NCBI GenBank assembly: GCA_964584935.1
Contig: CAZPBN010000012.1
Location: forward strand, 17,094-81,093
DNA length: 64,000 nt
Reading direction: 5' to 3'
Source of the DNA: an uncultured Eubacteriales bacterium
GTDB taxonomy: Bacteria > Acidobacteriota > Aminicenantia > Aminicenantales > Aminicenantaceae
Shown here: positions 205 through 21,841 of the stretch, piece by piece
Position numbering within the stretch: the first letter of the stretch is position 1
Layout: each line of letters opens with the position of its first letter
The notes under the pieces: model-generated
Database searches by the model: none
What the model was told of the DNA's origin: nothing
The model's input: only the letters and a program-made list of their open reading frames with translations
Made by a program: the position numbers and the translations under genes

Positions 205-978
205 TCAAATCATCAACAGACTCAACGCCATGATTAACATCCCCAGGACTATTCCCAATATCACAGTATGCCCATGACCAGAACGGTAAGCTGTCGGAAT
301 GATTTCATCCACAGATATATAGACCATGATACCTGCTACGAATGCCAAAAGGGACGCAATTAAAACTTCAGATAAAAAGGGCATCAATATCAAGAATCCA
401 AAAAGAGCCCCCACCGGTTCTGAAACACCGGATAAAAAAGAGTAAACAAATGCTTTGTTTCTATTTCCTGTGGCATAAAATAAAGGGATCGATACAGCAA
501 TCCCTTCAGGTATATTATGGATAGCTATAGCCATGGCAATAATCACCCCCAGCTCGACATCATTTAAGGCTGTCGCAAAGATCCCCAGTCCTTCTGGAAA
601 ATTATGAATTCCAATAGCCAAGGCAGTGAAAAAACCTGTTCTCATAAGGCTTTTATCTCCTTTAGTTTCCTTAATATCTTGTTCACCTCTGTAGTGATGA
701 GGATTTTTCTCTTCAGGAATTATTATATCAATTAAACCGATAAAACTAATTCCAATGAAAAACGCCACGATACTCCAGACTTTTCCAACATTTTCAATCG
801 ATTGAGGCAAAAGTTCCATGAACGATATGTAAATCATCACCCCGGCTGAAAATCCTAGAGAAAAGGAAAGATACCTTATCTTCGGTTTTCTAATAAAATA
901 GGCAATAGCACTCCCTATCCCCGTCGAAAGCCCGGCAAGAACAGTGAGTAATAGAGGTAAACCGATATCCCAATGCAT
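205..978 (-). CDS. zupT: ZIP family zinc/metal transporter (ZupT-like)
   Basis: 257 aa, 8 predicted TM segments, His-rich cytoplasmic loop (HHYRGEQD), ZIP signature HNxPEG twice (IHNFPEGLG, IHNIPEGIA). Confidence 0.8.
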   Translation of the reverse strand: MHWDIGLPLLLTVLAGLSTGIGSAIAYFIRKPKIRYLSFSLGFSAGVMIYISFMELLPQSIENVGKVWSIVAFFIGISFIGLIDIIIPEEKNPHHYRGEQDIKETKGDKSLMRTGFFTALAIGIHNFPEGLGIFATALNDVELGVIIAMAIAIHNIPEGIAVSIPLFYATGNRNKAFVYSFLSGVSEPVGALFGFLILMPFLSEVLIASLLAFVAGIMVYISVDEIIPTAYRSGHGHTVILGIVLGMLIMALSLLMI

Positions 979-1271
979 TAATATAATTCCTTATCCAATC
1001 TAGAACAATAGGACGATCCTTTCTTTCTTGTATGGAATGGGATATATTTGTAAATATTATGAACAAGAAATAGCTGGAGAAAGAGTGATTTTATCTCTTT
1101 TTCTTTTTTCTGTACGCCCATTAAACAATAAGCATACAGATTTGAACAAAAAATACAATGAAAAGGAGGATAAATCTCTGTTCTAATGGATTCACTCATC
1201 CTCTCAAATTCATTTCATTCCCCTTAAGCTGAAATAATCTGTATCCAAGCTCTTTTCTCTGAATGCTCTCC

Positions 1272-2753
1272 TTACGGGAAGATTCCTCTTTCTTTATAGA
1301 CCGTTTCAATGCGTGATATAGCTACCATCTGAGCCGCTGTTCGCATATCCACTTTTTTCTCTTTCGCCTTTTCACACACACGTTCATAGGCATTGACAAT
1401 GATCTTATGCAGTTTGTGATCCACTTCCTCAATATCCCAGAATTCACTGCGTTTATTCTGAAGCCACTCAAAGTAGCTAACAATCACTCCTCCGGCATTG
1501 CAGAGAATATCCGGAATAACATCTATTCCTCTGCTAACCAAAACTTTATCTCCATCCGGAGTGGTCGGGCCGTTGGCCCCTTCAGCAACGAGTTTAACCT
1601 TTAACAGTTTTGCAGTCTCTGATGTGATCTGATCTTCCAGAGCAGCCGGGATGAATATGTCCGCATCGGTGGTTAAGAAGGCCTCATGATCTATAGGACG
1701 TGCCTTAGGATAACCTTTTATAAGATTGTTGTTATTTTCCATATAATGAATCAAATCATCAGGATCAATGCCTTCCTTATTATAAATCGCTCCGGACACA
1801 TCTTCGACTGCCAAGAGATTTGATCCGTTTCTTTTCATCAATCGTGCTGACCAGGATCCAACATTCCCAAATCCTTGGATCATATAGGTCAATCCTTTCA
1901 TGTTGAATCCGCGATCCTTAACCCACTTCTCAATAAGAAAAACCAAACCTTGCCCTGTGGCTTTGTTGCGGCCTTGGGATCCACCCGCTTCGATGGGTTT
2001 CCCCGTGACCACGTGAATAGACCGATTACGTTCATTGGGAGCCACAGTTGACATATATGTGTCCATTATCCACGCCATGATCTGGGGGTTCGTATTCACA
2101 TCTGGAGCGGGAATATCATAGTCCGGACCGATATTATTTCCTAAAGAAAATGTGAACCGCCGGGTTATATTTTCTAATTCTCCATTACTGAAATCACTTG
2201 GATCAATTTGGATCCCTCCTTTGGCTCCTCCAAAAGGGATATTGGCAATGGCTGTCTTCCAAGTCATCAGAGTAGCCAGGGCTTTTATTTCGTCAACGTC
2301 AACAAGGGGATGAAATCGCAATCCGCCTTTGAATGGTCCCAGGATATTGTTATGCTGAACCCGATAGCCGGTTAACATTTTAACTGTCCCGTCATCCATT
2401 TTAACCGGAAAATGAACCACAAGTTCATTCATCGTTTCTGCCAAGATCCCACAAATATCTCTGTCAAAATGATTGTATTCCTTGATTTGTTCCAGTCGCT
2501 CGACAATATCTTTATACAAGTTTGATTTTTTTCTTTGTTTGGCTCTGTAATAGGGACATCGCCAAACGCCAGTTTCAGGTCTTGGTATATTACAAATCTC
2601 TTCTAGTTCACAAGAATTGCACAATCCTTTGAATTTTTTCCCTTCTTCAAAGCCTGGTCTCCCGTGTTGATAATACAACAGTTTCCATTCTTTGGTTGTT
2701 GACAAAGGCCTCAAACCATTGTTGTATTTACTCTCTCTTGTGTTATCTTTCAT
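1272..2753 (-). CDS. gdhA: Glutamate dehydrogenase (Glu/Leu/Phe/Val dehydrogenase family) with extra Cys4 N-terminal segment
   Basis: GPFKGGLRFHP, PFGGAKGG, GFGNVGS Rossmann motif. The longest ORF starts at GTG 2771, but ATG at 2753 is preceded by AAGGAG-N6, so the likely start is MKDNTRE. The N-terminal ~70 aa before the GDH core carries C-x2-C-x5-C-x11-C. Confidence 0.85.
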   Translation of the reverse strand: MKDNTRESKYNNGLRPLSTTKEWKLLYYQHGRPGFEEGKKFKGLCNSCELEEICNIPRPETGVWRCPYYRAKQRKKSNLYKDIVERLEQIKEYNHFDRDICGILAETMNELVVHFPVKMDDGTVKMLTGYRVQHNNILGPFKGGLRFHPLVDVDEIKALATLMTWKTAIANIPFGGAKGGIQIDPSDFSNGELENITRRFTFSLGNNIGPDYDIPAPDVNTNPQIMAWIMDTYMSTVAPNERNRSIHVVTGKPIEAGGSQGRNKATGQGLVFLIEKWVKDRGFNMKGLTYMIQGFGNVGSWSARLMKRNGSNLLAVEDVSGAIYNKEGIDPDDLIHYMENNNNLIKGYPKARPIDHEAFLTTDADIFIPAALEDQITSETAKLLKVKLVAEGANGPTTPDGDKVLVSRGIDVIPDILCNAGGVIVSYFEWLQNKRSEFWDIEEVDHKLHKIIVNAYERVCEKAKEKKVDMRTAAQMVAISRIETVYKERGIFP

Positions 2754-2782
2754 TTTTTTCTCCTTTCTCACATCTCCTTTAT

Positions 2783-2799
2783 TGCAATTTCAGTGCCAA
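2783..2799 (-). promoter_or_regulatory. Sigma54 (-24/-12) promoter for gdhA
   Basis: Minus strand reads TTGGCAC-TGAAA-TTGCA, a perfect match to TGGCAC-N5-TTGCA. It sits about 30 nt upstream of the gdhA ATG and directly downstream of a sigma54-dependent activator gene. Confidence 0.6.
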
Positions 2800-2984
2800 A
2801 TATAATATTTCATCCTTTTACTCCAATACCACTGGCGATATTATTTTTTGATTTCTTTAACTTGTTGAAAAAAAAAGAGTTATTTAACGCCCACAATGGA
2901 TAGAGCTGGGAATCCATTCACTCAGGTTTTTTTTGAATAATGAGAAAAGCGGGGAGATTTGTACCAGCGGGGAAAATTTCTCCG

Positions 2985-4352
2985 CTATGTGTGTTTCTTA
3001 TTCGAGTCTGGTATTTTTATTTTTTTTAACTTTTCACGAAGCGTTTTCCTGTCAACTCCTAGGATTTCAGCTGCTTTAGTCTTATTGTTATCCACGCTGG
3101 TTAAAACACTAAGAATATATTCAGCCTCCACTTCAGCCAAGCTTCTATGTCTTTTAATCCCACTGAGGGCCGAAAAACGCATAAGCGATGGAAGGTCAGG
3201 AACATCAATAATATTCCCTTCAGACATGACCACAAATCTTTGTACAATATTCTCCAACTCTCTAACATTTCCCGGCCAATAATAACTTTTCAAAACCTGC
3301 AAAGCACTTTCAGAAAACCGGGGGATTGACTTTCCAAACTCTTTGGCATACTTATCAGCAAAATGTTTGATCAACAACAAAATGTCTTCCTCTCTTTCTC
3401 TCAAAGGAGGAACCTCAATAGTGATCACATTCAGCCGGTAATAAAGATCCTCACGAAATGCTCCTTTATTCACATACCCCTGCAGGTCTTTGTTTGTTGC
3501 TGCAATGATCCTCACATCCACTTTCTGAGGGTACCTTTCTCCAACCATAATGACTTCCTTATCCTGGAGCACACGAAGGAGCTTGACTTGCATGGATAAA
3601 CTTGTCTCGCTTATTTCATCTAGAAAAATAGTCCCTCCATCTGCTGTCTGAAAAAACCCAGCCCTGGTTTCTGTAGCCCCTGTAAAAGCTCCTTTCACAT
3701 ACCCAAAAAGCTCACTTTCGAGTAAAGCCTCAGGGATCCCTCCGCAATTTATAGGGACAAAAGGAGACGAAGCGCGGGTGCTTTTGTAATGAATGGCTCT
3801 TGCCACCAGTTCTTTCCCAGTTCCACTCTCTCCAGTAATAAGAATCGTCGCTGAGCTTGAGCATGCTTTCTCGATAGCATTAAAAACCCTATGCATCGTT
3901 TTTGATTCTCCGATGAGCCCATAACGAGCGATAGGGACTTTATCGGTTTGCTTCTGAGTTGTTCTTCGCTCCTTGAGCTTACTGAGAACACGCTTCACAG
4001 AAGCAAAAAGTTCCTCATCAGTGAAGGGTTTCGCAAGATATTCTTCAGCTCCGGTTTTAACGGCTTCGACAGCTCCCTCAATGGAAGGATATCCTGTGAT
4101 CATGATAACTTCCGTATCTTTATAGTTTTCCTGAATATGCCGGACTAGGCTCAAACCATCTACCTTTGGCATTTTGAGATCCGTTATGACCAAATCCATT
4201 GGGGTGGATTCGAGAATCTTTATAGCCTCCACTGATCCCGGTGCAGTAAAGACATTATATCCTTTGGGCTCTAGATTTCTCCGCATCACCTCTAATATAT
4301 CCAGAGAATCATCCACAATAAGAATGCTTTCTTTTTTTGAAGGTTTTTTCAT
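2985..4352 (-). CDS. Sigma54-dependent response regulator (NtrC/AtoC family): REC + AAA+ sigma54-interaction + Fis-type HTH
   Basis: N-terminal receiver (ILIVDDS...VITDLKMP), Walker A GESGTGKE, GAFTGA sigma54-contact motif, ESELFGY, C-terminal HTH AAEILGVDRKTLREKL. Confidence 0.85.
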   Translation of the reverse strand: MKKPSKKESILIVDDSLDILEVMRRNLEPKGYNVFTAPGSVEAIKILESTPMDLVITDLKMPKVDGLSLVRHIQENYKDTEVIMITGYPSIEGAVEAVKTGAEEYLAKPFTDEELFASVKRVLSKLKERRTTQKQTDKVPIARYGLIGESKTMHRVFNAIEKACSSSATILITGESGTGKELVARAIHYKSTRASSPFVPINCGGIPEALLESELFGYVKGAFTGATETRAGFFQTADGGTIFLDEISETSLSMQVKLLRVLQDKEVIMVGERYPQKVDVRIIAATNKDLQGYVNKGAFREDLYYRLNVITIEVPPLREREEDILLLIKHFADKYAKEFGKSIPRFSESALQVLKSYYWPGNVRELENIVQRFVVMSEGNIIDVPDLPSLMRFSALSGIKRHRSLAEVEAEYILSVLTSVDNNKTKAAEILGVDRKTLREKLKKIKIPDSNKKHT

Positions 4353-4354
4353 CT

Positions 4355-6100
4355 TTACTTCTCGCTTTTTTCATTCGATTCAGGGATTGGAAGCCTTATC
4401 TCGAACCTTGTCCCCTGTCCCACCTTGCTTTTCACATCTATGGATCCTCCGTGGGAAGTAACAATTCCATGAACCACAGGCAACCCCAGCCCTGTTCCTT
4501 TTCCAATCTCCTTGGTTGTAAAAAAGGGAATAAATATCTTTTTGACAATGCCTTCCTCCATACCAACACCTGTGTCCTCCACTATAAATGAAATGGTTTT
4601 CCCTGATGATTCTGTTTTTATGGTTAATTCTCCACCATTGGGCATAGCCTGTATGGCATTGACAGCGATGTTGACAAAAACCTGTGTCATTTGAGCTGGG
4701 TCGGCAGTGATGTCTGGTATATTTTGAGAAAAGTTGCGAATAATCTTTATTCCTTCTTTGGCACATCGCGATTCAAGAAAATAAAGGCTCTCTTCAACAA
4801 TTTGACTTAAACTCACTTGAGCTTTTTGAGGAGGCATCTGACGTGCAAACAGCATCAATTTCTTAACCACTTCTCGTGCATGCAGAGAGGCTTTCATAAT
4901 TTTTTCAGTATCTTTTTTCACTTGATCGGATAAATCAGGATATTTCTGAACAAGCTGGGCAAATCCAAGAATGCTCCCTATAGGCTCATTCAATTCATGG
5001 GCTACTCCTGCAGATAATTGACCGATCGTAGCTAACCGGTCTGCATGCCTCAGCTGCTCTTGAAGTTTTTCTTTATCATGTTCTGTTTGCTTCCGTTCAA
5101 TAATCAAAGCCACCTCTTTAGCAACTGTATCAATTAAATTGCGCTCTTCTTTGAGAAAAGGGCCTTCGTCAAGCTCCGGTTTTTTTTCTGAATAAATCAC
5201 TTCAACGGTACCCCGCTCGCAATCACTAACAATAATACTCACCCTCTGTCTATGAACCCCATTTTGAAAATCATCAGTTAAGTAAGACTTTTGATCCACA
5301 GTAATTCTAGCTGAAGTGATCTCAGGATACAGCCAGGCTGGAGGAAGAAGCTGTGCAATTCCTTGAAGAATTTCTTCCAAGGAAAGGTCAGTCCGTTCCG
5401 CGAGCTTTGCAATACCATATAGACAGGTGAGTTCTTTAACCCTTTCGTTAAGCTCTACTTGAGCCCGCCGGTGAGCGGCAGCAATCCCTAAGGTCTGGAC
5501 AACATCCTCACAAAATAACACATCTTTTTTTTGGAAAGAATCAGGGGGCTTATTTTTTAATTGGAGCAATCCAATGTTTTCATTCTCCACGACAATCGGG
5601 ACCACAACTAAAGACCTGTAATTTTCAAACTTCATGGATTGGATCGAAGATACTCCCGAAATTTGTTTGGACAGAAAAGCAAGTGTTTTTTCAGTATGGT
5701 TTGTCCAAAAACTTCCATTGTCTGTTATAAAAGGCAAAGAAGAATCATATTGCTTAAGAAGAATATTCAAGCATAACTGATCCAGAGAAGAGTCTTTTTT
5801 CAATCCAGGTATATAGTGACCATTTCTATCTTTCACAACAGGAACAATTTCAAAGCGGAAAGACTGTTTTTTAGAACGCCTCATTTCACTTCGGTAATAC
5901 TTCCCCCGCTCCTTCAGCCACATCTCTACGGAATCACACCCACAAAATTCCAAGATAATTCTGGAAGTTTCTTTTAAAAAATCGATCCTCAGAAAGCCAT
6001 GAAAGGCAAGATGCATGATTTGATCTGAAACATTTCGGAAATCTTTAAGCTCATGGGGCGGGGCAAATTCTCTATTGGATTTCTTTGATGTCTTCGTCAT
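4355..6100 (-). CDS. Cytoplasmic sensor histidine kinase with N-terminal GAF-type sensor domains
   Basis: 581 aa, no TM segment, H-box HELNEPIGSILGFAQL, HATPase_c motifs (DTGVGM, GKGTGLGL). The stop is 3 nt from the regulator start, so the pair is probably an operon. Confidence 0.8.
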   Translation of the reverse strand: MTKTSKKSNREFAPPHELKDFRNVSDQIMHLAFHGFLRIDFLKETSRIILEFCGCDSVEMWLKERGKYYRSEMRRSKKQSFRFEIVPVVKDRNGHYIPGLKKDSSLDQLCLNILLKQYDSSLPFITDNGSFWTNHTEKTLAFLSKQISGVSSIQSMKFENYRSLVVVPIVVENENIGLLQLKNKPPDSFQKKDVLFCEDVVQTLGIAAAHRRAQVELNERVKELTCLYGIAKLAERTDLSLEEILQGIAQLLPPAWLYPEITSARITVDQKSYLTDDFQNGVHRQRVSIIVSDCERGTVEVIYSEKKPELDEGPFLKEERNLIDTVAKEVALIIERKQTEHDKEKLQEQLRHADRLATIGQLSAGVAHELNEPIGSILGFAQLVQKYPDLSDQVKKDTEKIMKASLHAREVVKKLMLFARQMPPQKAQVSLSQIVEESLYFLESRCAKEGIKIIRNFSQNIPDITADPAQMTQVFVNIAVNAIQAMPNGGELTIKTESSGKTISFIVEDTGVGMEEGIVKKIFIPFFTTKEIGKGTGLGLPVVHGIVTSHGGSIDVKSKVGQGTRFEIRLPIPESNEKSEK

Positions 6101-15606: not shown

Positions 15607-18483
15607 CTACATGTTTTCTTTCACAAAGTCATAAAAATCAATTTCATTAGCATCAATTCCATATTGATAGACGTAATGACTTGCCAACCATGAGGCAAAA
15701 ATAGCTTTAAGATAAGAATAAGGAACTCGATTAACGATTCTATCAAATCCAACATATTGAAGCAAAATATCAGGACAATAGTTTTCAATGACCTTTTGGA
15801 AGAGGATCTCATTTTTGACCAAATTTGATTTGGTGATGGTGTCTATAATGTTATTGATTTTCTCACTGATGCGATCAGAAAGAATAGAATAGGGTATATT
15901 CTTCATTTCGTTTTCTTTCCATATTATCTCAAATTCCATTTCAGCGTTTTTTTTAATCACTTGAATGATTTCATCTATATAATTTTTCCGAAACGATGGG
16001 ATTTCATCATCTCTGACACACATAAGGTCATCATATTCTTTATCTGATAGAGCCAAACTGGCAAACACTTCCAAAGATGAAGAAGTCACCCCTCCTTTGT
16101 TTGCAGAAGCATCTTTAAAAATGATGACTCCATATTCTTCCAGACGAAGGCGAGCCTGTTGAGTGATAAAAAGATTGGCTCCTTCAACAATATAGTTGAA
16201 GCGGGGGGTCCCTTGATCATCTACAAAATTATCCCAATTGTTTATATTAATGGAAGCAGGTCTTCCTCCACAGGGAAGAAACAGGTCTGCTTTAAAATGA
16301 GGATGAAGATGAAATTTGTTTCGGAATTCGAGCCCATTGGCTACTTTCTCCCCATCAGGAAGTTCCACATTTTTGTCTTCAATGGTAACGAGATATCCTC
16401 TGTTGGAAAGAAGAGAAGGATTGAAATGCTTCACTGCCCTCCTGGCTTTGGCAAGCCTTTTCAGTTCAGGTCTGTTGATTCCTTCTGGGTCATACAGCAC
16501 CCCGGAACCATCAATAATAGCCATTATTTTATCTTTTGATATAAGAATCTCGTTGCTCCCCAGATCCCCATCTGGACCTCCTGTCATAACCTTTGTAATG
16601 TCTTTTTCTTTAATCCCTTCTTTTTCCAAAATCTTAAGCACGTATTGATGAACAGAGTTTGTGGTCATCCCGTAATCATCATGAGGAATCCCTCCCATAT
16701 TGACGGGTTTCCCGGTAGAAAAAGCTTGCCAGTAAGGAAACTTTTTTGCTCTAGCTCTGAGAGCTGCCCATCCCATCAATTCTGCTGTCCCTTCATCTGG
16801 GCCGAGAAACAAAATGATTTCTTTCCCATAATGATCCACAATCTCTTCATCCGGTGAAAGCAGATCAAGAAGTCCATTAACATATTTCTTAAAGGAAATT
16901 TCAGCCTTGTCCTGATCTTCCCAACCCAACAAAATCGTCCCTTTGGAACCGCCTTCAGGAATATCTTTATTCTTTTTATGTTGAGTCAAAGAAAGATTAT
17001 AATTTTCATCAAAAATAAAATCCGAATTGTTCATATAATTCTGATAACTTGATGATTTCACAATTCGAATCCCTCCCCTGGCTATATCTTTGAATCGAAT
17101 ATGAAAACCTCTGAACTCAAGGGAAATGATATGGAAAAGTCCAAAAGGGACCTCCGGGTAATCAACTTTGTTTAAAAATTTCGGATCGTACATAAAGGCG
17201 ATGGAGTTCTTTCCTTTCTTAAAAAAGTTTGTCTTCAAAATGCTGTTTATAAACAATAGAATCATTAAAAATATATTTCGATCTAATTCTACTGAAATGT
17301 TCTGTAAGATTTCTGTTCTTAATTCTTCGATATCCCCATCAATATGGGATTTGTTAAGGAGGGGATTGAACTTTTTATTGAAAATCTGAAAAGCATTTTT
17401 GAGATAAATATAATAGTCAACCAACGACTTCCAAATTCGGGCAGAATCATAGGACATTTTTGAAAGACGTGTTCTCAAATTCCTGACGATTCCTATGAGC
17501 TCCGGGGAATCCTTTAACGACTCAACCAGTTTGAGATATTCTTCATTATACTCGCTTAAAAATTGATGTAAGAAACTCCATGCAGAAACTCCGAAAACCG
17601 TTTCTTGAGCAGTCAGTTTTCCACTTCTGAACAAAGAAAAAAGCGGGCTTTCTGGAATCACATAGATCAGAGTTATATCTTCAATCAAATTTTCGAATTT
17701 CTGTTTATCCTGAATGTAATCCAGGTAAAAAGTATAAACAGTTTTTCCGTTCATGAATTGCTCCACATATTTCCTATTGGATACAAGACCGTAAGAATTA
17801 ATCACATCCGATATATTGGAAAAGAAACAGGTGCTTGCCTCTTTATTAATAACAATCATGATCCGGTGTTCGTTCGTATCCAATTTTTCCGACACATCAA
17901 TCAGCGGGGTCTCCTTCCCAACCGCGTTTGCTAATACATCTTGATATCTTTGGATTGTTTCTTCTGTTGCTGACTCCAGAAAGGACTGACAGGCTACTTT
18001 TGTTAATTCGGTTTCATAAACCATTTCTTTCTTTATCCGGAACTTAGGCTTGTAAACAAGATACATCCTAAGATGTTCAATCCCTAAAGCTTTTCCTTTT
18101 GTTCTATAGGATTGAAGCCGAAATCCCGGATATTTTTTTTCAATCCTCCTCTCTACTTCCAAAGCTCTGGAGTGATGGTCATCAACCAAATACAATGCTT
18201 CATCTTCGGATTCGCTGGAAAGATCTATTTTAAATAATTTTTCTTTCTGGATGGTGGCAATGATTTCCGCAGATTTCACCGCCTCTATATGAGAAGCAAG
18301 TATTTTTAAGGGTGTGGTTTTAAAATAATATTCATTCATTCCCAGCCTGGTGCAAAACCAATCAACTTCTTTCCGAATCGTATATTTAGAAAAATGACCG
18401 TGGCTTAAAATAACGTTTTCGATCATTTCTAGCTGTTCTTCGTTTAAAAAAGATTCCTTTGCGATTTCTTTTAAGCTTTTCAT
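15607..18483 (-). CDS. Large NAD-specific glutamate dehydrogenase (about 110 kDa GDH2-like class)
   Basis: 958 aa. GDH-like catalytic segments ISLEFRGFHIRFKDIARGGIR, TGKPVNMGGIPHDDYGMTTNSVHQY and the fingerprint GGPDGDLGSNE. Much longer than hexameric GDHs. Confidence 0.6.
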   Translation of the reverse strand: MKSLKEIAKESFLNEEQLEMIENVILSHGHFSKYTIRKEVDWFCTRLGMNEYYFKTTPLKILASHIEAVKSAEIIATIQKEKLFKIDLSSESEDEALYLVDDHHSRALEVERRIEKKYPGFRLQSYRTKGKALGIEHLRMYLVYKPKFRIKKEMVYETELTKVACQSFLESATEETIQRYQDVLANAVGKETPLIDVSEKLDTNEHRIMIVINKEASTCFFSNISDVINSYGLVSNRKYVEQFMNGKTVYTFYLDYIQDKQKFENLIEDITLIYVIPESPLFSLFRSGKLTAQETVFGVSAWSFLHQFLSEYNEEYLKLVESLKDSPELIGIVRNLRTRLSKMSYDSARIWKSLVDYYIYLKNAFQIFNKKFNPLLNKSHIDGDIEELRTEILQNISVELDRNIFLMILLFINSILKTNFFKKGKNSIAFMYDPKFLNKVDYPEVPFGLFHIISLEFRGFHIRFKDIARGGIRIVKSSSYQNYMNNSDFIFDENYNLSLTQHKKNKDIPEGGSKGTILLGWEDQDKAEISFKKYVNGLLDLLSPDEEIVDHYGKEIILFLGPDEGTAELMGWAALRARAKKFPYWQAFSTGKPVNMGGIPHDDYGMTTNSVHQYVLKILEKEGIKEKDITKVMTGGPDGDLGSNEILISKDKIMAIIDGSGVLYDPEGINRPELKRLAKARRAVKHFNPSLLSNRGYLVTIEDKNVELPDGEKVANGLEFRNKFHLHPHFKADLFLPCGGRPASININNWDNFVDDQGTPRFNYIVEGANLFITQQARLRLEEYGVIIFKDASANKGGVTSSSLEVFASLALSDKEYDDLMCVRDDEIPSFRKNYIDEIIQVIKKNAEMEFEIIWKENEMKNIPYSILSDRISEKINNIIDTITKSNLVKNEILFQKVIENYCPDILLQYVGFDRIVNRVPYSYLKAIFASWLASHYVYQYGIDANEIDFYDFVKENM

Positions 18484-18665: not shown

Positions 18666-20105
18666 TTAAATCTTCCCATTCTTATGTTTATTTTTGTAGA
18701 TTGTCACCCATTTCTCTATAATTTCTGCCAAGGTTCGTTCCACTTCGACTCCCCTTCCGTGTATGGGACGAATTTCTTCGGCAAGCTCTGTGTATCCGAG
18801 ACGATCCAGCCAGGTAGAAAAGTAATCATTATCGCTGAATTTTTGGATTTTTTCAGGCTTTATTGTTTTTAAACTATCCAGGAGCTCACGGAGAGTGAAT
18901 ATTTCTTTATCCCCTATGACCAAAGGAGTTGTTTTAACATTATCCATGGCTTTTTTAAAAATCTGTTTTAAAAAAGCCACCATCTTTTGTCCTTTATATC
19001 GAAGGGGAAGAATTTTATCAGCAAGATCTTTGAATCCATGCATATACAGCCAGGTAGAAAAATTATCCTTTCTTCCGTACTCCTCAAGAATTTGGCGAAG
19101 TTGACGCCCATAAGCCGTATCTTTTTCAGCCTTATTGAAGATGTCTATCATTTCATTGGTATTTTTAACCCGCTCCAGCTCTTTCCCTTCTTTTGAAAGA
19201 ATAACAAAATCTCCCATGCCCGTGAAATCATGAATATAATTCCTCAGGGTTTTTAAGCTGCCTGGATCTCCTTTGGGGAGGATAAAGGCTGTGGTGCGAA
19301 GGTCATCGGCTTCAGAAGCTTTAGAGGCAATTATTTTCGGGAATCGCGGGAAATATTTATCGACCAGACGAATGAAATCAGCCCCCACATCTGGTTTCAT
19401 TTCTCCGCCCCGAGGGAAATAGATGTCAGAGATAAGACACACAACATCATCCCCGTATCCTTTATTGGCATAATCGGAATCGTTGATCATTGATTCATCC
19501 CGAACGCCAAACAGAAATTCCATTGCTTGTTCAAAAGTGCGTGCGATTTGAACCGCTGCTCTCTGTCCTATAATATCATAAAGAACCGGAATAAACTGGG
19601 AAATCCAGCGGGGCTCATCATCCACCACCAGAATGATGTAACGGCGTGCCTTTGAATAGTTTTCAATATTGAGTTTATCCTGTGCACTCCTTACCACAGA
19701 AGTGATGATACGAGCAGGAGTACAATCTTTCTTATTGGAAGCAAATATCAAATCTGCTTTTTTGGTGTAAGGATATTTTTCTTCTGATACCGACGGAGGA
19801 GAACATTGAATCATATCAATGGCTGATATCAAAACAACTGCCACATCTTTATTGCGCCTGCGGATTTTTTGAGTATCCAAAAGGTTTAATCCTGTATCAT
19901 CACACACTAAGACAAACGCTTGACTTCGTTTCACCTGCTCTGCTTCGCCGGGATTGGAAAGAACACAAACTTCCACCCACGGCATTTGGTCTTCAAGAAC
20001 TTGGCCGGACTTTTTAACTTCTTCATCAGCAGACAATATCAATACTTGATTTATTTTTACCGGATTGACGACGCGGGGATAAAAGGAGTTGACTGAATTC
20101 AGCAT
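18666..20105 (-). CDS. Double receiver-domain protein (pseudo-REC + canonical REC) with duplicated C-terminal domain of unknown function
   Basis: REC2 has the acidic pocket VVDDE, phospho-acceptor LISDIYFP, IIASKAS, ILPKG. REC1 is degenerate (LILSADEE...LVCDD). The C-terminal ~190 aa contain two copies of D(N/Y)FSTWL...G(F/Y)x(D/E)LA(D/E)(K/E)IxP. Confidence 0.5.
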   Translation of the reverse strand: MLNSVNSFYPRVVNPVKINQVLILSADEEVKKSGQVLEDQMPWVEVCVLSNPGEAEQVKRSQAFVLVCDDTGLNLLDTQKIRRRNKDVAVVLISAIDMIQCSPPSVSEEKYPYTKKADLIFASNKKDCTPARIITSVVRSAQDKLNIENYSKARRYIILVVDDEPRWISQFIPVLYDIIGQRAAVQIARTFEQAMEFLFGVRDESMINDSDYANKGYGDDVVCLISDIYFPRGGEMKPDVGADFIRLVDKYFPRFPKIIASKASEADDLRTTAFILPKGDPGSLKTLRNYIHDFTGMGDFVILSKEGKELERVKNTNEMIDIFNKAEKDTAYGRQLRQILEEYGRKDNFSTWLYMHGFKDLADKILPLRYKGQKMVAFLKQIFKKAMDNVKTTPLVIGDKEIFTLRELLDSLKTIKPEKIQKFSDNDYFSTWLDRLGYTELAEEIRPIHGRGVEVERTLAEIIEKWVTIYKNKHKNGKI

Positions 20106-20113
20106 GTCTCCCC

Positions 20114-21841
20114 CTACTTCTCAGAAACGATCACACATTTCTGTTTGTTGGAATCAGCATAGATATTGACCGGTGTGGGAAATTTTCGTATAAAAATGGG
20201 ACTGTTTGTTTCAGGCGAGGAAAAGAACCAGGGATCAATATGATCCTCCAGAGGAGCAATATATCCATAAATTACCCTGTTGCTCATGAGATTTGTTAAA
20301 AAATGAGTCCCTTGGGTTCCAAACATACGGGTCCGAAGCCTTTTCTGTTCTTCATCAAATCCCCCCTGAATCATATAGAGAAAATGGCTCCCGTATATTC
20401 CCCCACCCGTGAGAGTATCATGCACTGGCTCCGATCTCGCTGCTATATCCACGCCGTATTCGAAAATAGCTGATGGCGATCCAACGTTCTCAAACTCCAC
20501 TTGAATTCCCCAATTACGGTTTTTTGTTCCCAACCTCCCCGGAACAATGATAATATAGCTCTTTCCCTGATTTTTAAGAGCACAGGAAAATTCACTCAAT
20601 TTTGCAACCACATCATCATGCATTTCTTTTTTATAGAGAAAAGGAGACACAACAACAGCACATTCAACATTTTTTTTCATGCCATGGCCCTGCAGATTCT
20701 GCAGGGAGAGATATGTTTTCTTCACTTTGTCAGGAATCCTCACCTTTTCGAATGTCATCTTTGGTAAAGGCGTTAATTGGACTACATGAAAAGTACCATT
20801 TCTTTTTATGTCTTTCAAGTGTTCCACATTAAAAACAAATTCAATTTGAAAGTGAGGCATCACCTTGGAAGTGATTGCTTCCATAATCTCGATAAGTCCG
20901 GTTCGGAATTCATACATATCATCTTGAACTAAAGCTTCGAGAGTGATCCATTTTTTTTCTCTTCCCAGTGCTTTGGTGGTATGATAATCGGCAAAACGGA
21001 TATGAAGCCTCCTCATGGTTTCCATTTCATCTCCTCTGAGGCTGGAGTTTTTTGTCATATCAATCGCATAGAAGAATTTTTGGCCTTCCCCCATGAATTT
21101 TACTGGAATAGGATTCTTGATGGTTGCCATAGAAATGACCGGAAAGTCATCTAAAACAGTCGCGTATCCATGACCAAAAGCCAACCGGGCAAATCCTTCA
21201 TTGGCTACCTGGGATTTCAAAGCATAGGGAAAAAAAGAGTTTGCTACCCCAGAGACCAGGGGGCAATAAACAGGGCCTGCCAAAGATTTCCAGCTCATTC
21301 CAGGAATGGGATTAATGACGATAGCCATTTTTTCCCGGCTGTTTGAATCCTGTTTCATTTTGAAATCGGAGTAAATGTTATCAATGGCTTGTATAAACTG
21401 ACGAAAACGTATGGATAAGTCAGGATGATTATTGGGAAGCATGAACGATGTATTCTCGCCAGCATGGACAGAAACATCATCTCGGGAAACAAAAGCTTCG
21501 TTCGTGGCAGAGGAACGAATACTTATAGGAATTTCTCCCAGTTTACTTAAAATATCTTTGATTGTCTCCAGGTCATTGTTATTAAATGTTCCTCCGTTTT
21601 TTAGATAGCGGTCATAATAAGAAGTTGTAAGAATTCTCGTTCGAAGCTGGTGCACCCGGGGAATGTGGTGTTCGTTGATTTTGATAAGACCATACCCTTT
21701 CCCTCCTGAAAATCCCTGGCCATATATTTTGACATCTCCAACTTTATCAACTATGTTTTCTCTCAGAATTTTGTTAGAGTCAGAAGCGTCATTGTTGTAT
21801 TTTTTTTGACCCATGTTCATCGATGAATCCCCGCTTATCAT
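20114..21841 (-). CDS. PEP-synthase/PPDK N-terminal nucleotide-binding (PPDK_N) domain protein lacking the PEP/pyruvate TIM-barrel domain
   Basis: SGGKGYGL; IRSSATNEA...SVHAGENTSF, which parallels VRSSATAEDLP..SFAGQ in PpsA/PPDK. 575 aa. The C-terminal ~150 aa are unassignable. 8-nt gap to the downstream REC gene. Confidence 0.55.
   Translation of the reverse strand: MISGDSSMNMGQKKYNNDASDSNKILRENIVDKVGDVKIYGQGFSGGKGYGLIKINEHHIPRVHQLRTRILTTSYYDRYLKNGGTFNNNDLETIKDILSKLGEIPISIRSSATNEAFVSRDDVSVHAGENTSFMLPNNHPDLSIRFRQFIQAIDNIYSDFKMKQDSNSREKMAIVINPIPGMSWKSLAGPVYCPLVSGVANSFFPYALKSQVANEGFARLAFGHGYATVLDDFPVISMATIKNPIPVKFMGEGQKFFYAIDMTKNSSLRGDEMETMRRLHIRFADYHTTKALGREKKWITLEALVQDDMYEFRTGLIEIMEAITSKVMPHFQIEFVFNVEHLKDIKRNGTFHVVQLTPLPKMTFEKVRIPDKVKKTYLSLQNLQGHGMKKNVECAVVVSPFLYKKEMHDDVVAKLSEFSCALKNQGKSYIIIVPGRLGTKNRNWGIQVEFENVGSPSAIFEYGVDIAARSEPVHDTLTGGGIYGSHFLYMIQGGFDEEQKRLRTRMFGTQGTHFLTNLMSNRVIYGYIAPLEDHIDPWFFSSPETNSPIFIRKFPTPVNIYADSNKQKCVIVSEK

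Follow-up and report, generated by a model that had tools for sequence, protein, structure and literature searches.

The P1–P2 locus and its proteins

The stretch of DNA analysed here (the window) comprises 64,000 nucleotides of contig CAZPBN010000012.1 (assembly GCA_964584935.1), from an uncultured bacterium whose closest relatives are Aminicenantes metagenome-assembled genomes (MAGs). Its minus strand carries two adjacent genes, here called P1 and P2, which an earlier note, made from the sequence without database searches, had described as a phospho-signalling pair: an ATP-binding protein resembling phosphoenolpyruvate (PEP) synthase without a PEP domain, followed by a protein with two receiver (REC) domains. 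Both open reading frames (ORFs) were found as described, encoding 575 and 479 amino acids. Sequence comparisons, detailed below, provide good support for regarding P1 and P2 as the split, two-protein form of a widespread single-chain signalling protein in which a pseudo-receiver, a receiver, a DUF5752 region and an ATP-grasp domain of the pyruvate phosphate dikinase (PPDK) type, PPDK_N, follow one another. The features of the pair are as follows.

20114–21841, minus strand: P1 gene, divergent PPDK_N-type ATP-grasp domain and C-terminal His-bearing domain; longest ORF 575 aa
20732–21739, minus strand: P1 ATP-grasp (PPDK_N-like) domain, residues ~35–370; key residues K48, R109, S132, E334 and Q355
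21698–21700, 21515–21517 and 21446–21448, minus strand: codons of P1 K48, R109 and S132, respectively
20117–20731, minus strand: P1 C-terminal domain, residues 371–575, common to all four paralogous families; contains PGRLG (R436)
20303–20305, minus strand: codon of H513, candidate phospho-carrier of P1, in GTQGTHF
20384–20386, minus strand: codon of H486, in the second motif copy GGIYGSHFLYM, within a P1-specific insertion (residues ~465–501)
20106–20113, minus strand: P1/P2 spacer, 8 nt, GGGGAGAC, with a Shine-Dalgarno-like element (from the sequence)
18666–20105, minus strand: P2 gene, pseudo-receiver, receiver and internally duplicated DUF5752 region; ORF of 479 aa
19656–20054, minus strand: P2 N-terminal (beta-alpha)5 pseudo-receiver, residues ~18–150 (AlphaFold2 secondary structure, Foldseek)
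19221–19643, minus strand: P2 receiver REC2, residues ~155–295, with D162/D163, acceptor D227 (19425–19427), S261 and K278
18669–19220, minus strand: P2 DUF5752 region (Pfam PF19027), residues 296–479; repeats at 18951–19220 and 18669–18950

The identical database protein (P0001) has 568 amino acids and begins at M8 of P1, and M8 (21818–21820) is probably the true start. The stop codon of P1 and the start codon of P2 are separated by exactly 8 nt (TAG-GGGGAGAC-ATG), in agreement with the earlier note, and the spacer contains GGAG; this Shine-Dalgarno-like element at such close range suggests translational coupling of the two genes. Homology searches detected 570 homologues of P1, all named 'hypothetical', and 593 of P2. 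The best 120 homologues of each protein, which come from Aminicenantes, KSB1 and Acidobacteriota MAGs and are 52–67% identical, are likewise all 'hypothetical' with no Pfam domain recorded; every related sequence in this analysis derives from MAGs. Searches of NCBIfam, PADLOC and PDB sequences with P1, P2 and the P1 profile gave no meaningful match, the PADLOC defence models returning zero matches to P1 or P2 at E ≤ 1. Neither HisKA nor HATPase_c (the DHp and GHKL ATPase domains) was detected in P1 or P2 in domain-model searches.

The earlier note had read an unmistakable PPDK_N signature in P1. The motifs that it quoted, GGKG (K48), IRSSATNEA (R109) and AGENTSFMLPNN, are all present, and most are invariant in 47–48 homologues. 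With the Pfam PPDK_N model, however, P1 reaches only 16.5 bits, short of the cut-off of 27, and the assignment to the PPDK_N type therefore rests on profile–profile and fold evidence. In hhalign comparisons, the P1 family profile aligned over its full length to three neighbouring paralogous families that are themselves PPDK_N-positive at 114–204 bits. The ~583-aa proteins ('B583') aligned with a probability of 99.9% (E = 1.6e-33), residues 425–983 of the single-chain fusions (985–1064 aa) with residues 37–573 of P1 at 100% (E = 2.3e-38), and sensor proteins of 920–1070 aa at 98% (E = 6.6e-14). The top structural matches of P1, whose predicted model is of modest quality (predicted local distance difference test score, pLDDT, 61), were the rifampin phosphotransferase RPH and HpeI.

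In RPH, mutagenesis has shown that Lys22, Arg117 and Thr136 position the ATP polyphosphate (PMC4844700). These residues map to K48, R109 and S132 of P1, all three invariant in 48 homologues; among distant relatives, the equivalent of K48 is Lys in 111/111 sequences and that of R109 is Arg in 114/114. E334 and Q355 we take to be the Mg ligands known from PPDK. Judged by its sequence, P1 is thus securely placed as a very divergent ATP-grasp protein of the PPDK/PEP synthase (PEPS)/RPH type whose ATP-positioning residues are intact. Consistent with the earlier note, no PEP/pyruvate domain was detected in P1, nor was a PEP-utilizers or a small-molecule-binding (e.g. rifampin-binding) domain. As it has no third domain, P1 falls outside PEP synthase, PPDK and RPH proper. 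An antibiotic or aromatic phosphotransferase identity was considered and rejected, given that there is no substrate-binding domain and no resistance or catabolic context. A regular-expression search for genuine PEPS, PPDK or Enzyme I genes in the window and related loci found none.

The C-terminal domain of P1 carries a His motif common to all four families: GTQGTHFLTN (H513) aligns with SQGSHFFxN of the paralogues, and G[ST]HF is present in 77/77 P1, 27/28 B583, 23/24 sensor-type and 4/4 fusion proteins. The Ser, Gly and His positions of S-x-G-x-H-F, like the Arg of GPGRWG, do not vary among the 114 sequences chosen to represent distant clusters. In the P1 family the motif is duplicated, with copies 27 residues apart: GGIYGSHFLYM (H486) and YGTQGTHFLTN (H513). 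The H486 copy is confined to the ~37-aa insertion of the P1 family and is invariant in 75/77 members. It was this copy, GGIYGSHFLY, that the earlier note had singled out as a loose swivel-like motif; it is present, but the universal motif is the next one, GTQGTHF. H486 may possibly be a second phospho-site or a regulatory mimic.

The P1 C-terminal profile found no match among Pfam and PDB sequences at E ≤ 10, and none to PEP-utilizers. In hhalign comparisons, the C-terminal profiles showed no similarity to Escherichia coli Enzyme I or to a swivel fragment of PpsA, both represented by approximate query sequences. Given this null result, we infer rather than assert, on well-motivated grounds, that the C-terminal domain is a phosphohistidine carrier with H513 as the carrier residue.

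P2 was modelled with high scores (pLDDT 90.8; predicted template-modelling score, pTM, 0.91). REC2 has a (beta-alpha)5 CheY-like fold, and the residues in its motifs DDEPRW (D162/D163), ISDIYFP (D227), ASKA (S261) and LPKGDP (K278) align with those of CheY (approximate sequence) and of OmpR-type and NtrC-type receivers. All five signature residues are invariant among P2 homologues, so that the canonical receiver proposed earlier, with its Asp pocket, is maintained across the family. The Pfam Response_reg model (PF00072) gave no match to P2 at E ≤ 1; what identifies P2 as a receiver protein is its fold and its signature residues rather than the Pfam model. The N-terminal domain is degenerate, as the earlier note had it: neither the acidic pair nor the Lys is present, whereas D69/D70 are retained. 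These two residues (19896–19901, minus strand) are invariant; they are located where strand 3 ends and, in the CheY alignment, fall on the acceptor position. In the fused relatives, the pseudo-receiver does match Response_reg, at 25–32 bits, and its acceptor position is Thr or Met. The best specific Foldseek matches of the P2 pseudo-receiver were the tandem REC proteins PleD and 3mf4, and a profile comparison of the pseudo-receiver with REC2 found no sequence similarity.

The C-terminal 184 amino acids of P2, said in the earlier note to match nothing recognisable, in fact match DUF5752 in two stretches, marginally, at 23.5 bits against a cut-off of 23. This marginal match is recurrent, since the fused relatives score 18–22 bits on the same model, and in them DUF5752 sits between REC and PPDK_N. 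The duplication noticed earlier was borne out: in an hhalign self-comparison, residues 296–385 matched residues 386–479 with a probability of 98.5% (E = 4e-15), and each repeat bears an FSTWL...G(F/Y)xELA motif, the two copies of FSTWL being present as quoted. DUF5752 matched nothing in the PDB and has no solved structure, a literature search for DUF5752 or PF19027 found no paper, and a homology search with the DUF5752 half returned only P2 fragments.

The sub-threshold score of P1 for PPDK_N and the lack of a Response_reg match to REC2 would also fit a pair without catalysis, in which P1 serves as an AMP/ATP energy sensor, P2 as a phosphorylation-independent adaptor, and glutamate dehydrogenase (GDH) is tuned allosterically. 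Many atypical receivers work without phosphorylation. The ATP-positioning residues, the candidate His and the five receiver residues are, however, invariant over a wide phylogeny, which would be unexpected for pseudoenzymes, and we consider such a scaffold very improbable.

Conservation of the pair and single-chain relatives

To describe the distribution of the pair, 80 loci were collected with one genome per species, from at least 8 phyla (Aminicenantes, KSB1, Zixibacteria, Gemmatimonadota, Zhuqueibacterota, Eisenbacteria, Fischerbacteria and others); adjacency was counted over 79. In 72/79 loci, P2 lies immediately downstream of P1 in the same orientation. Of the seven others, five break off at a contig end and give partial P2 matches, and the two true exceptions (L016 and L082) instead carry an adjacent single-chain protein with Response_reg, DUF5752 and PPDK_N. 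Such fusions mirror the layout of P2: a pseudo-receiver is followed by a REC2-like receiver with an intact pocket and then by DUF5752, and residues 73–390 of P2 align with fusion residues 95–402 at a probability of 99.2% (E = 1e-19, hhalign). The opposite order also occurs, in a single ORF (P0270) in which P1 precedes a complete P2 (38% identity, E = 3e-103). The adjacency in 72/79 loci, the homology of both proteins to the halves of the fusions and the reverse-order fusion together provide good support for functional coupling of P1 and P2, as the earlier note had suggested from their spacing.

An exhaustive profile search of 1.84 billion representative sequences for P1 relatives found 994, of which 470 had E ≤ 1e-10. 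Most are either ~950–1010 aa long, with the kinase module C-terminal, or ~560–590 aa. Among 48 long relatives sampled, 47 matched PPDK_N, 18 Response_reg and 11 DUF5752, and no other sensor domain recurred; REC-DUF5752 is N-terminal in ~70% of the long relatives. In the set of 114 sequences, the acceptor Asp of REC2 is kept in 68/78 and the Lys in 71/75.

The reverse fusion lies at 926–3961 on the plus strand of locus L087 (GCA_964648455.1, CAZYMQ010000742.1) and encodes 1011 aa, with the P1 homologue at residues 15–548 and the P2 homologue at 570–1008; downstream are a 377-aa protein without assignment and an extracytoplasmic function (ECF)-type sigma factor. Three contigs of Marine Group III euryarchaeotes (L088–L090) encode a 974-aa pseudoREC-REC-DUF5752-PPDK_N protein (8001–10925 in L088); its neighbours are housekeeping genes, and neither a histidine kinase nor a GDH is encoded within 8 kb of it.

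The earlier note knew of no described system with this architecture. The combination 'REC with pyruvate phosphate dikinase' already appears, however, in a published census, in the class of response regulators predicted to have enzymatic outputs (PMC5847659; Galperin et al.), and one kinase that is a truncated PPDK, VadK, has been studied experimentally (PMC13400623). P1 and P2 represent the same domain combination as the census proteins and are homologous to their C- and N-terminal halves, respectively; they differ from them in being split into two translationally coupled genes and in the divergence of P1, which Pfam PPDK_N misses at its threshold. In the literature searched, we found neither a description of DUF5752 and the leading pseudo-receiver for REC+PPDK proteins nor a biochemical characterisation of any member. 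The present analysis adds the split form, the pseudoREC-REC-DUF5752 protein as its constant partner, a His motif that is invariant and, in P1, duplicated, and the lineage-wide association with GDH and glutamate synthase genes, described below.

Genomic context and the link to glutamate genes

The flanks of the pair were surveyed by unbiased clustering of all ORFs in the 80 loci. Of the 79 loci, 38 have a GDH or glutamate synthase gene within 10 kb; among the 34 with long flanks, 22 do (~65%), and 19 of these 34 contain an additional PPDK_N paralogue. Three arrangements recur, with operon-like intergenic distances. In Aminicenantes, P1 and P2 are followed by an OmpR-type response regulator and a calcineurin-like phosphoesterase, and face an operon of a small GDH, B583 and a sensor-PPDK_N protein. 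In Zixibacteria, Gemmatimonadota and others (type II), the order is small GDH, GAF histidine kinase, NtrC-type activator, P1 and P2, the gap from the NtrC-type gene to P1 being 40–94 nt in 5/7 loci. In KSB1 and Zhuqueibacterota, genes for NuoEF/GltD-ferredoxin-glutamate synthase precede P1, P2 and a large GDH. From these data, the split REC-DUF5752/PPDK_N module is very probably linked to glutamate genes. The solitary archaeal fused relative, with neither GDH nor kinase nearby, indicates that the link is lineage-specific rather than superfamily-wide.

The window follows the KSB1/Zhuqueibacterota type (P1, P2, large GDH), and the large GDH directly follows P2 in the window and in six loci of that type. 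The neighbours that bear on this link are listed below.

15607–18483, minus strand: large NAD-specific GDH, 958 aa (Pfam GDH2_N, GDH_2nd, Bac_GDH_CD, ELFV_dehydrog)
4355–6100, minus strand: GAF-HisKA-HATPase histidine kinase (Pfam), candidate phosphodonor for P2
2985–4352, minus strand: NtrC-type sigma-54 activator (REC-AAA+-HTH_8; Pfam), partner of the kinase; same family upstream of P1 in nine loci
2783–2798, minus strand: sigma-54 promoter TGGCACTGAAATTGCA of the small GDH (pattern TGGCAC-N5-TTGCA, 0 mismatches)
1272–2771, minus strand: small ELFV GDH (Pfam)

The earlier note had placed the pair between the large NAD-GDH and the etfBA-fab genes and suggested a role in redox or nitrogen/carbon balance. 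The large GDH and etfA, etfB and fabF do flank it, but the etf/fab context recurs in no related locus and was rejected as a functional link; the nitrogen side of the suggestion is the one that the 22/34 loci with glutamate genes favour. No minus-strand terminator was found between P2 and the large GDH in a sigma-70/terminator scan that did not rise above chance, and no sigma-54 promoter was found upstream of P1 or of the large GDH at ≤ 2 mismatches. None of the extra genes of the Aminicenantes arrangement is present in the window. In many Aminicenantes the facing operon is tightly packed: in L074 (14945–21142) and L057 (14770–21024), for example, overlapping genes encode the small GDH, a 583-aa PPDK_N protein and a ~1064-aa sensor-PPDK_N protein with a C-terminal NTP_transf_2 domain. 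Together with P1, P2, the OmpR-type regulator and the phosphoesterase that it faces, this operon looks like a multi-enzyme covalent-modification island around GDH.

The GAF kinase of the window lies 12 kb from the pair and is an orthologue of the type II kinases, with 54–62% core identity; the orthologous gene stands directly upstream of the NtrC-type regulator, P1 and P2 in nine other loci. Most of the remaining loci contain no histidine kinase within 10 kb. Positions 1272–6100 (minus strand) hold a complete circuit of GAF kinase, NtrC-type activator and sigma-54-driven small GDH, the promoter of the latter being the sole perfect sigma-54 match in the window by pattern search. The small GDH ORF has 499 aa, compared with 427–436 aa in related loci, and its ~90-aa N-terminal extension (2480–2771, minus strand), with four Cys (CNSCELEEIC...WRCPYY), may represent a metal or redox module. 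The annotated GTG follows the sigma-54 promoter by just 12 nt, so translation probably begins a few codons further on.

In the window kinase, residues ~210–350 (5050–5470, minus strand), located between GAF and HisKA, form a segment that we term sensor X. It is 35–40% identical, with E-values down to 1e-28, to the N-terminus of the 920–1070-aa PPDK_N proteins. Sensor X stands on a PPDK_N module in 24 loci, including L034 (4352–7114) and L057 (14770–17964). Going by this similarity, the same sensor joins two different ATP-using modules, a kinase core and PPDK_N, in different genomes.

The receiver as input or as phosphoacceptor

With classical two-component proteins and PleD, P2 shares the REC2 fold, the D-D-D-S-K signature, the tandem arrangement (PleD, 3mf4) and the accompanying GAF histidine kinase and NtrC-type regulator. 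It differs from them in that neither P1 nor P2 has HisKA/HATPase, a histidine phosphotransfer (HPt) domain or a known output domain, the pseudo-receiver comes first, and Pfam misses the receiver. For the kinase half, the best parallel in logic among characterised proteins is VadK (Rv1127c) of Mycobacterium tuberculosis. This truncated PPDK phosphorylates itself on His and modulates the methylcitrate cycle (PMC13400623). In structure, RPH and HpeI come closest. Like P1, VadK combines an ATP-grasp and a His-bearing domain without a PEP/pyruvate domain, and it acts as a regulator of central metabolism. Unlike P1, it is a recent PPDK derivative whose phosphohistidine domain (His422) can be recognised, and it is partnered by neither a receiver nor DUF5752. 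In P1, the sequence of the C-terminal domain does not reveal its identity. The two proteins were compared by description.

RPH, with equivalents of Lys22, Arg117 and Thr136 in P1, and HpeHI, a two-component dikinase spread over two polypeptides (PMC4844700 and PMC12167813 for RPH and HpeHI), raise the question of whether P1 and P2 form a dikinase for a small molecule, in which DUF5752 would bind a metabolite, for instance one related to glutamate or 2-oxoglutarate, and the receiver would merely tune the reaction. The structural matches of P1, the precedent of HpeHI for a split, the metabolic gene neighbourhood and a DUF5752 region that has no assigned function and could bind a ligand are in line with this. 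RPH and HpeH, however, have a large small-molecule-binding domain of their own and a canonical GGxTSH swivel, both missing from P1 and P2, and the partner here is a receiver protein. DUF5752 is a small helical repeat (~2 × 80 aa) unlike the rifampin-binding or HpeH domain, in which, outside the FSxW motif, neither a His nor any other residue of catalytic appearance is conserved throughout; the steady association with receivers, histidine kinases, NtrC-type and OmpR-type regulators indicates signalling, and no resistance, catabolic or PADLOC defence context was seen. A small-molecule dikinase is accordingly an unlikely explanation.

We tentatively favour, at somewhat below even odds, a reading in which the receiver is the input that controls P1 and is fed by the GAF kinase, over one in which P1 is the donor. 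P1 would bind ATP in a PPDK/RPH-type site (K48, R109, S132) and most likely phosphorylate its own H513, by analogy with PPDK, PEPS, RPH and VadK. Lacking both a PEP/pyruvate and a small-molecule domain, it would serve regulation, as a kinase or phosphocarrier, and not act as a dikinase of metabolism. P2 would be its obligate partner, with REC2 D227 as a phosphorylatable switch and DUF5752 as a dedicated module joining receiver to kinase. The GAF histidine kinase may phosphorylate REC2 and also drive the NtrC-type activator and the sigma-54 promoter of the small GDH; phosphorylated P2 would then switch P1, and a target at the glutamate node (GDH, glutamate synthase or their regulator) would be modified in parallel to transcriptional control. 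Three observations speak for an input role of the receiver: most fusions carry REC-DUF5752 at the N-terminus, the census views REC+PPDK proteins as response regulators with enzymatic outputs (PMC5847659), and histidine kinase, NtrC-type regulator, P1 and P2 form operons in other genomes while the orthologous kinase and regulator lie beside the sigma-54-driven GDH in the window.

Several points weigh against the receiver as input. Most Aminicenantes-type loci have no histidine kinase within 10 kb, though an OmpR-type regulator follows P2; the archaeal fused relative is solitary; and one fusion is ordered from kinase to receiver, like hybrid histidine kinases. REC2 is too divergent in sequence for the Pfam model and could have a non-canonical phosphodonor. 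The model of P1 is of modest quality, as noted above, and the action of P1 at the glutamate node, including GDH modification, is put forward as a proposal only.

The same observations bear on the converse possibility, proposed in outline by the earlier note, that P1 feeds the receiver. Here P1 would autophosphorylate H513 (ATP to AMP and Pi) and pass the phosphate to D227 of P2, and REC2, held by DUF5752, would replace the PEP/pyruvate domain as the second swivel station; phosphorylated P2 would act on its own target or signal to the OmpR-type regulator. Enzyme I of the PEP-dependent phosphotransferase system (PTS) offers a parallel, as its phosphohistidine domain, of the PPDK/Enzyme I superfamily, passes phosphate to a protein acceptor, HPr. 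It differs in using PEP instead of ATP and in phosphorylating a His, on HPr, where the relay would have a receiver Asp; the approximate Enzyme I sequence, moreover, was not similar to the P1 C-terminal profiles. A third, acceptor domain is needed by all characterised PPDK-type enzymes and is absent from P1 and its paralogues, while a receiver with an intact acceptor pocket is the constant companion, in cis or in trans, and fusions occur in both orders, including kinase to receiver. In about 14/17 loci with P1, P2 and the OmpR-type regulator, no classical histidine kinase lies within 10 kb despite two encoded receiver proteins; none lies near the archaeal fused relative; sensor X occurs on HisKA/HATPase or PPDK_N as if these were interchangeable transmitters; and the REC2 sequence is atypical. 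Transfer from a PPDK-type phosphohistidine to a receiver Asp, however, has no known precedent, and the N-terminal receiver of most fusions is in the usual input position. The B583 and sensor-PPDK_N paralogues lack a receiver within the same chain, a GAF kinase that looks cognate exists in type II loci and in the window, ~13% of the fused relatives lack the acceptor Asp yet keep the His, and the swivel nature of the P1 C-terminal domain is unproven. We regard such a phosphorelay as somewhat less probable than the receiver as input. A broader notion, that the PPDK_N and His module of P1 and its roughly 1,000 relatives constitutes a second, evolutionarily independent class of receiver transmitter and, in the phyla with the pair, confers energy-charge-sensitive control on GDH and glutamate synthase, is similarly tentative.

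If the receiver does control P1, then receiver phosphorylation would be coupled to PPDK-type ATP-grasp and phosphohistidine chemistry in a family of signalling enzymes that comprises ~1,000 clusters at 50% identity in bacteria and archaea and is biochemically uncharacterised. The pair would exert major post-translational control over the glutamate node, the junction of carbon and nitrogen metabolism, in Aminicenantes, KSB1, Zixibacteria, Gemmatimonadota and related uncultured phyla. Were the phosphorelay correct instead, it would provide the first ATP-driven phosphodonor of a response regulator other than a histidine kinase. DUF5752 also gains a concrete context as a putative linker or partner domain of PPDK_N-type kinases, and K48 and H513 (plus H486) in P1 and D227 in P2 are singled out as the residues to mutate.

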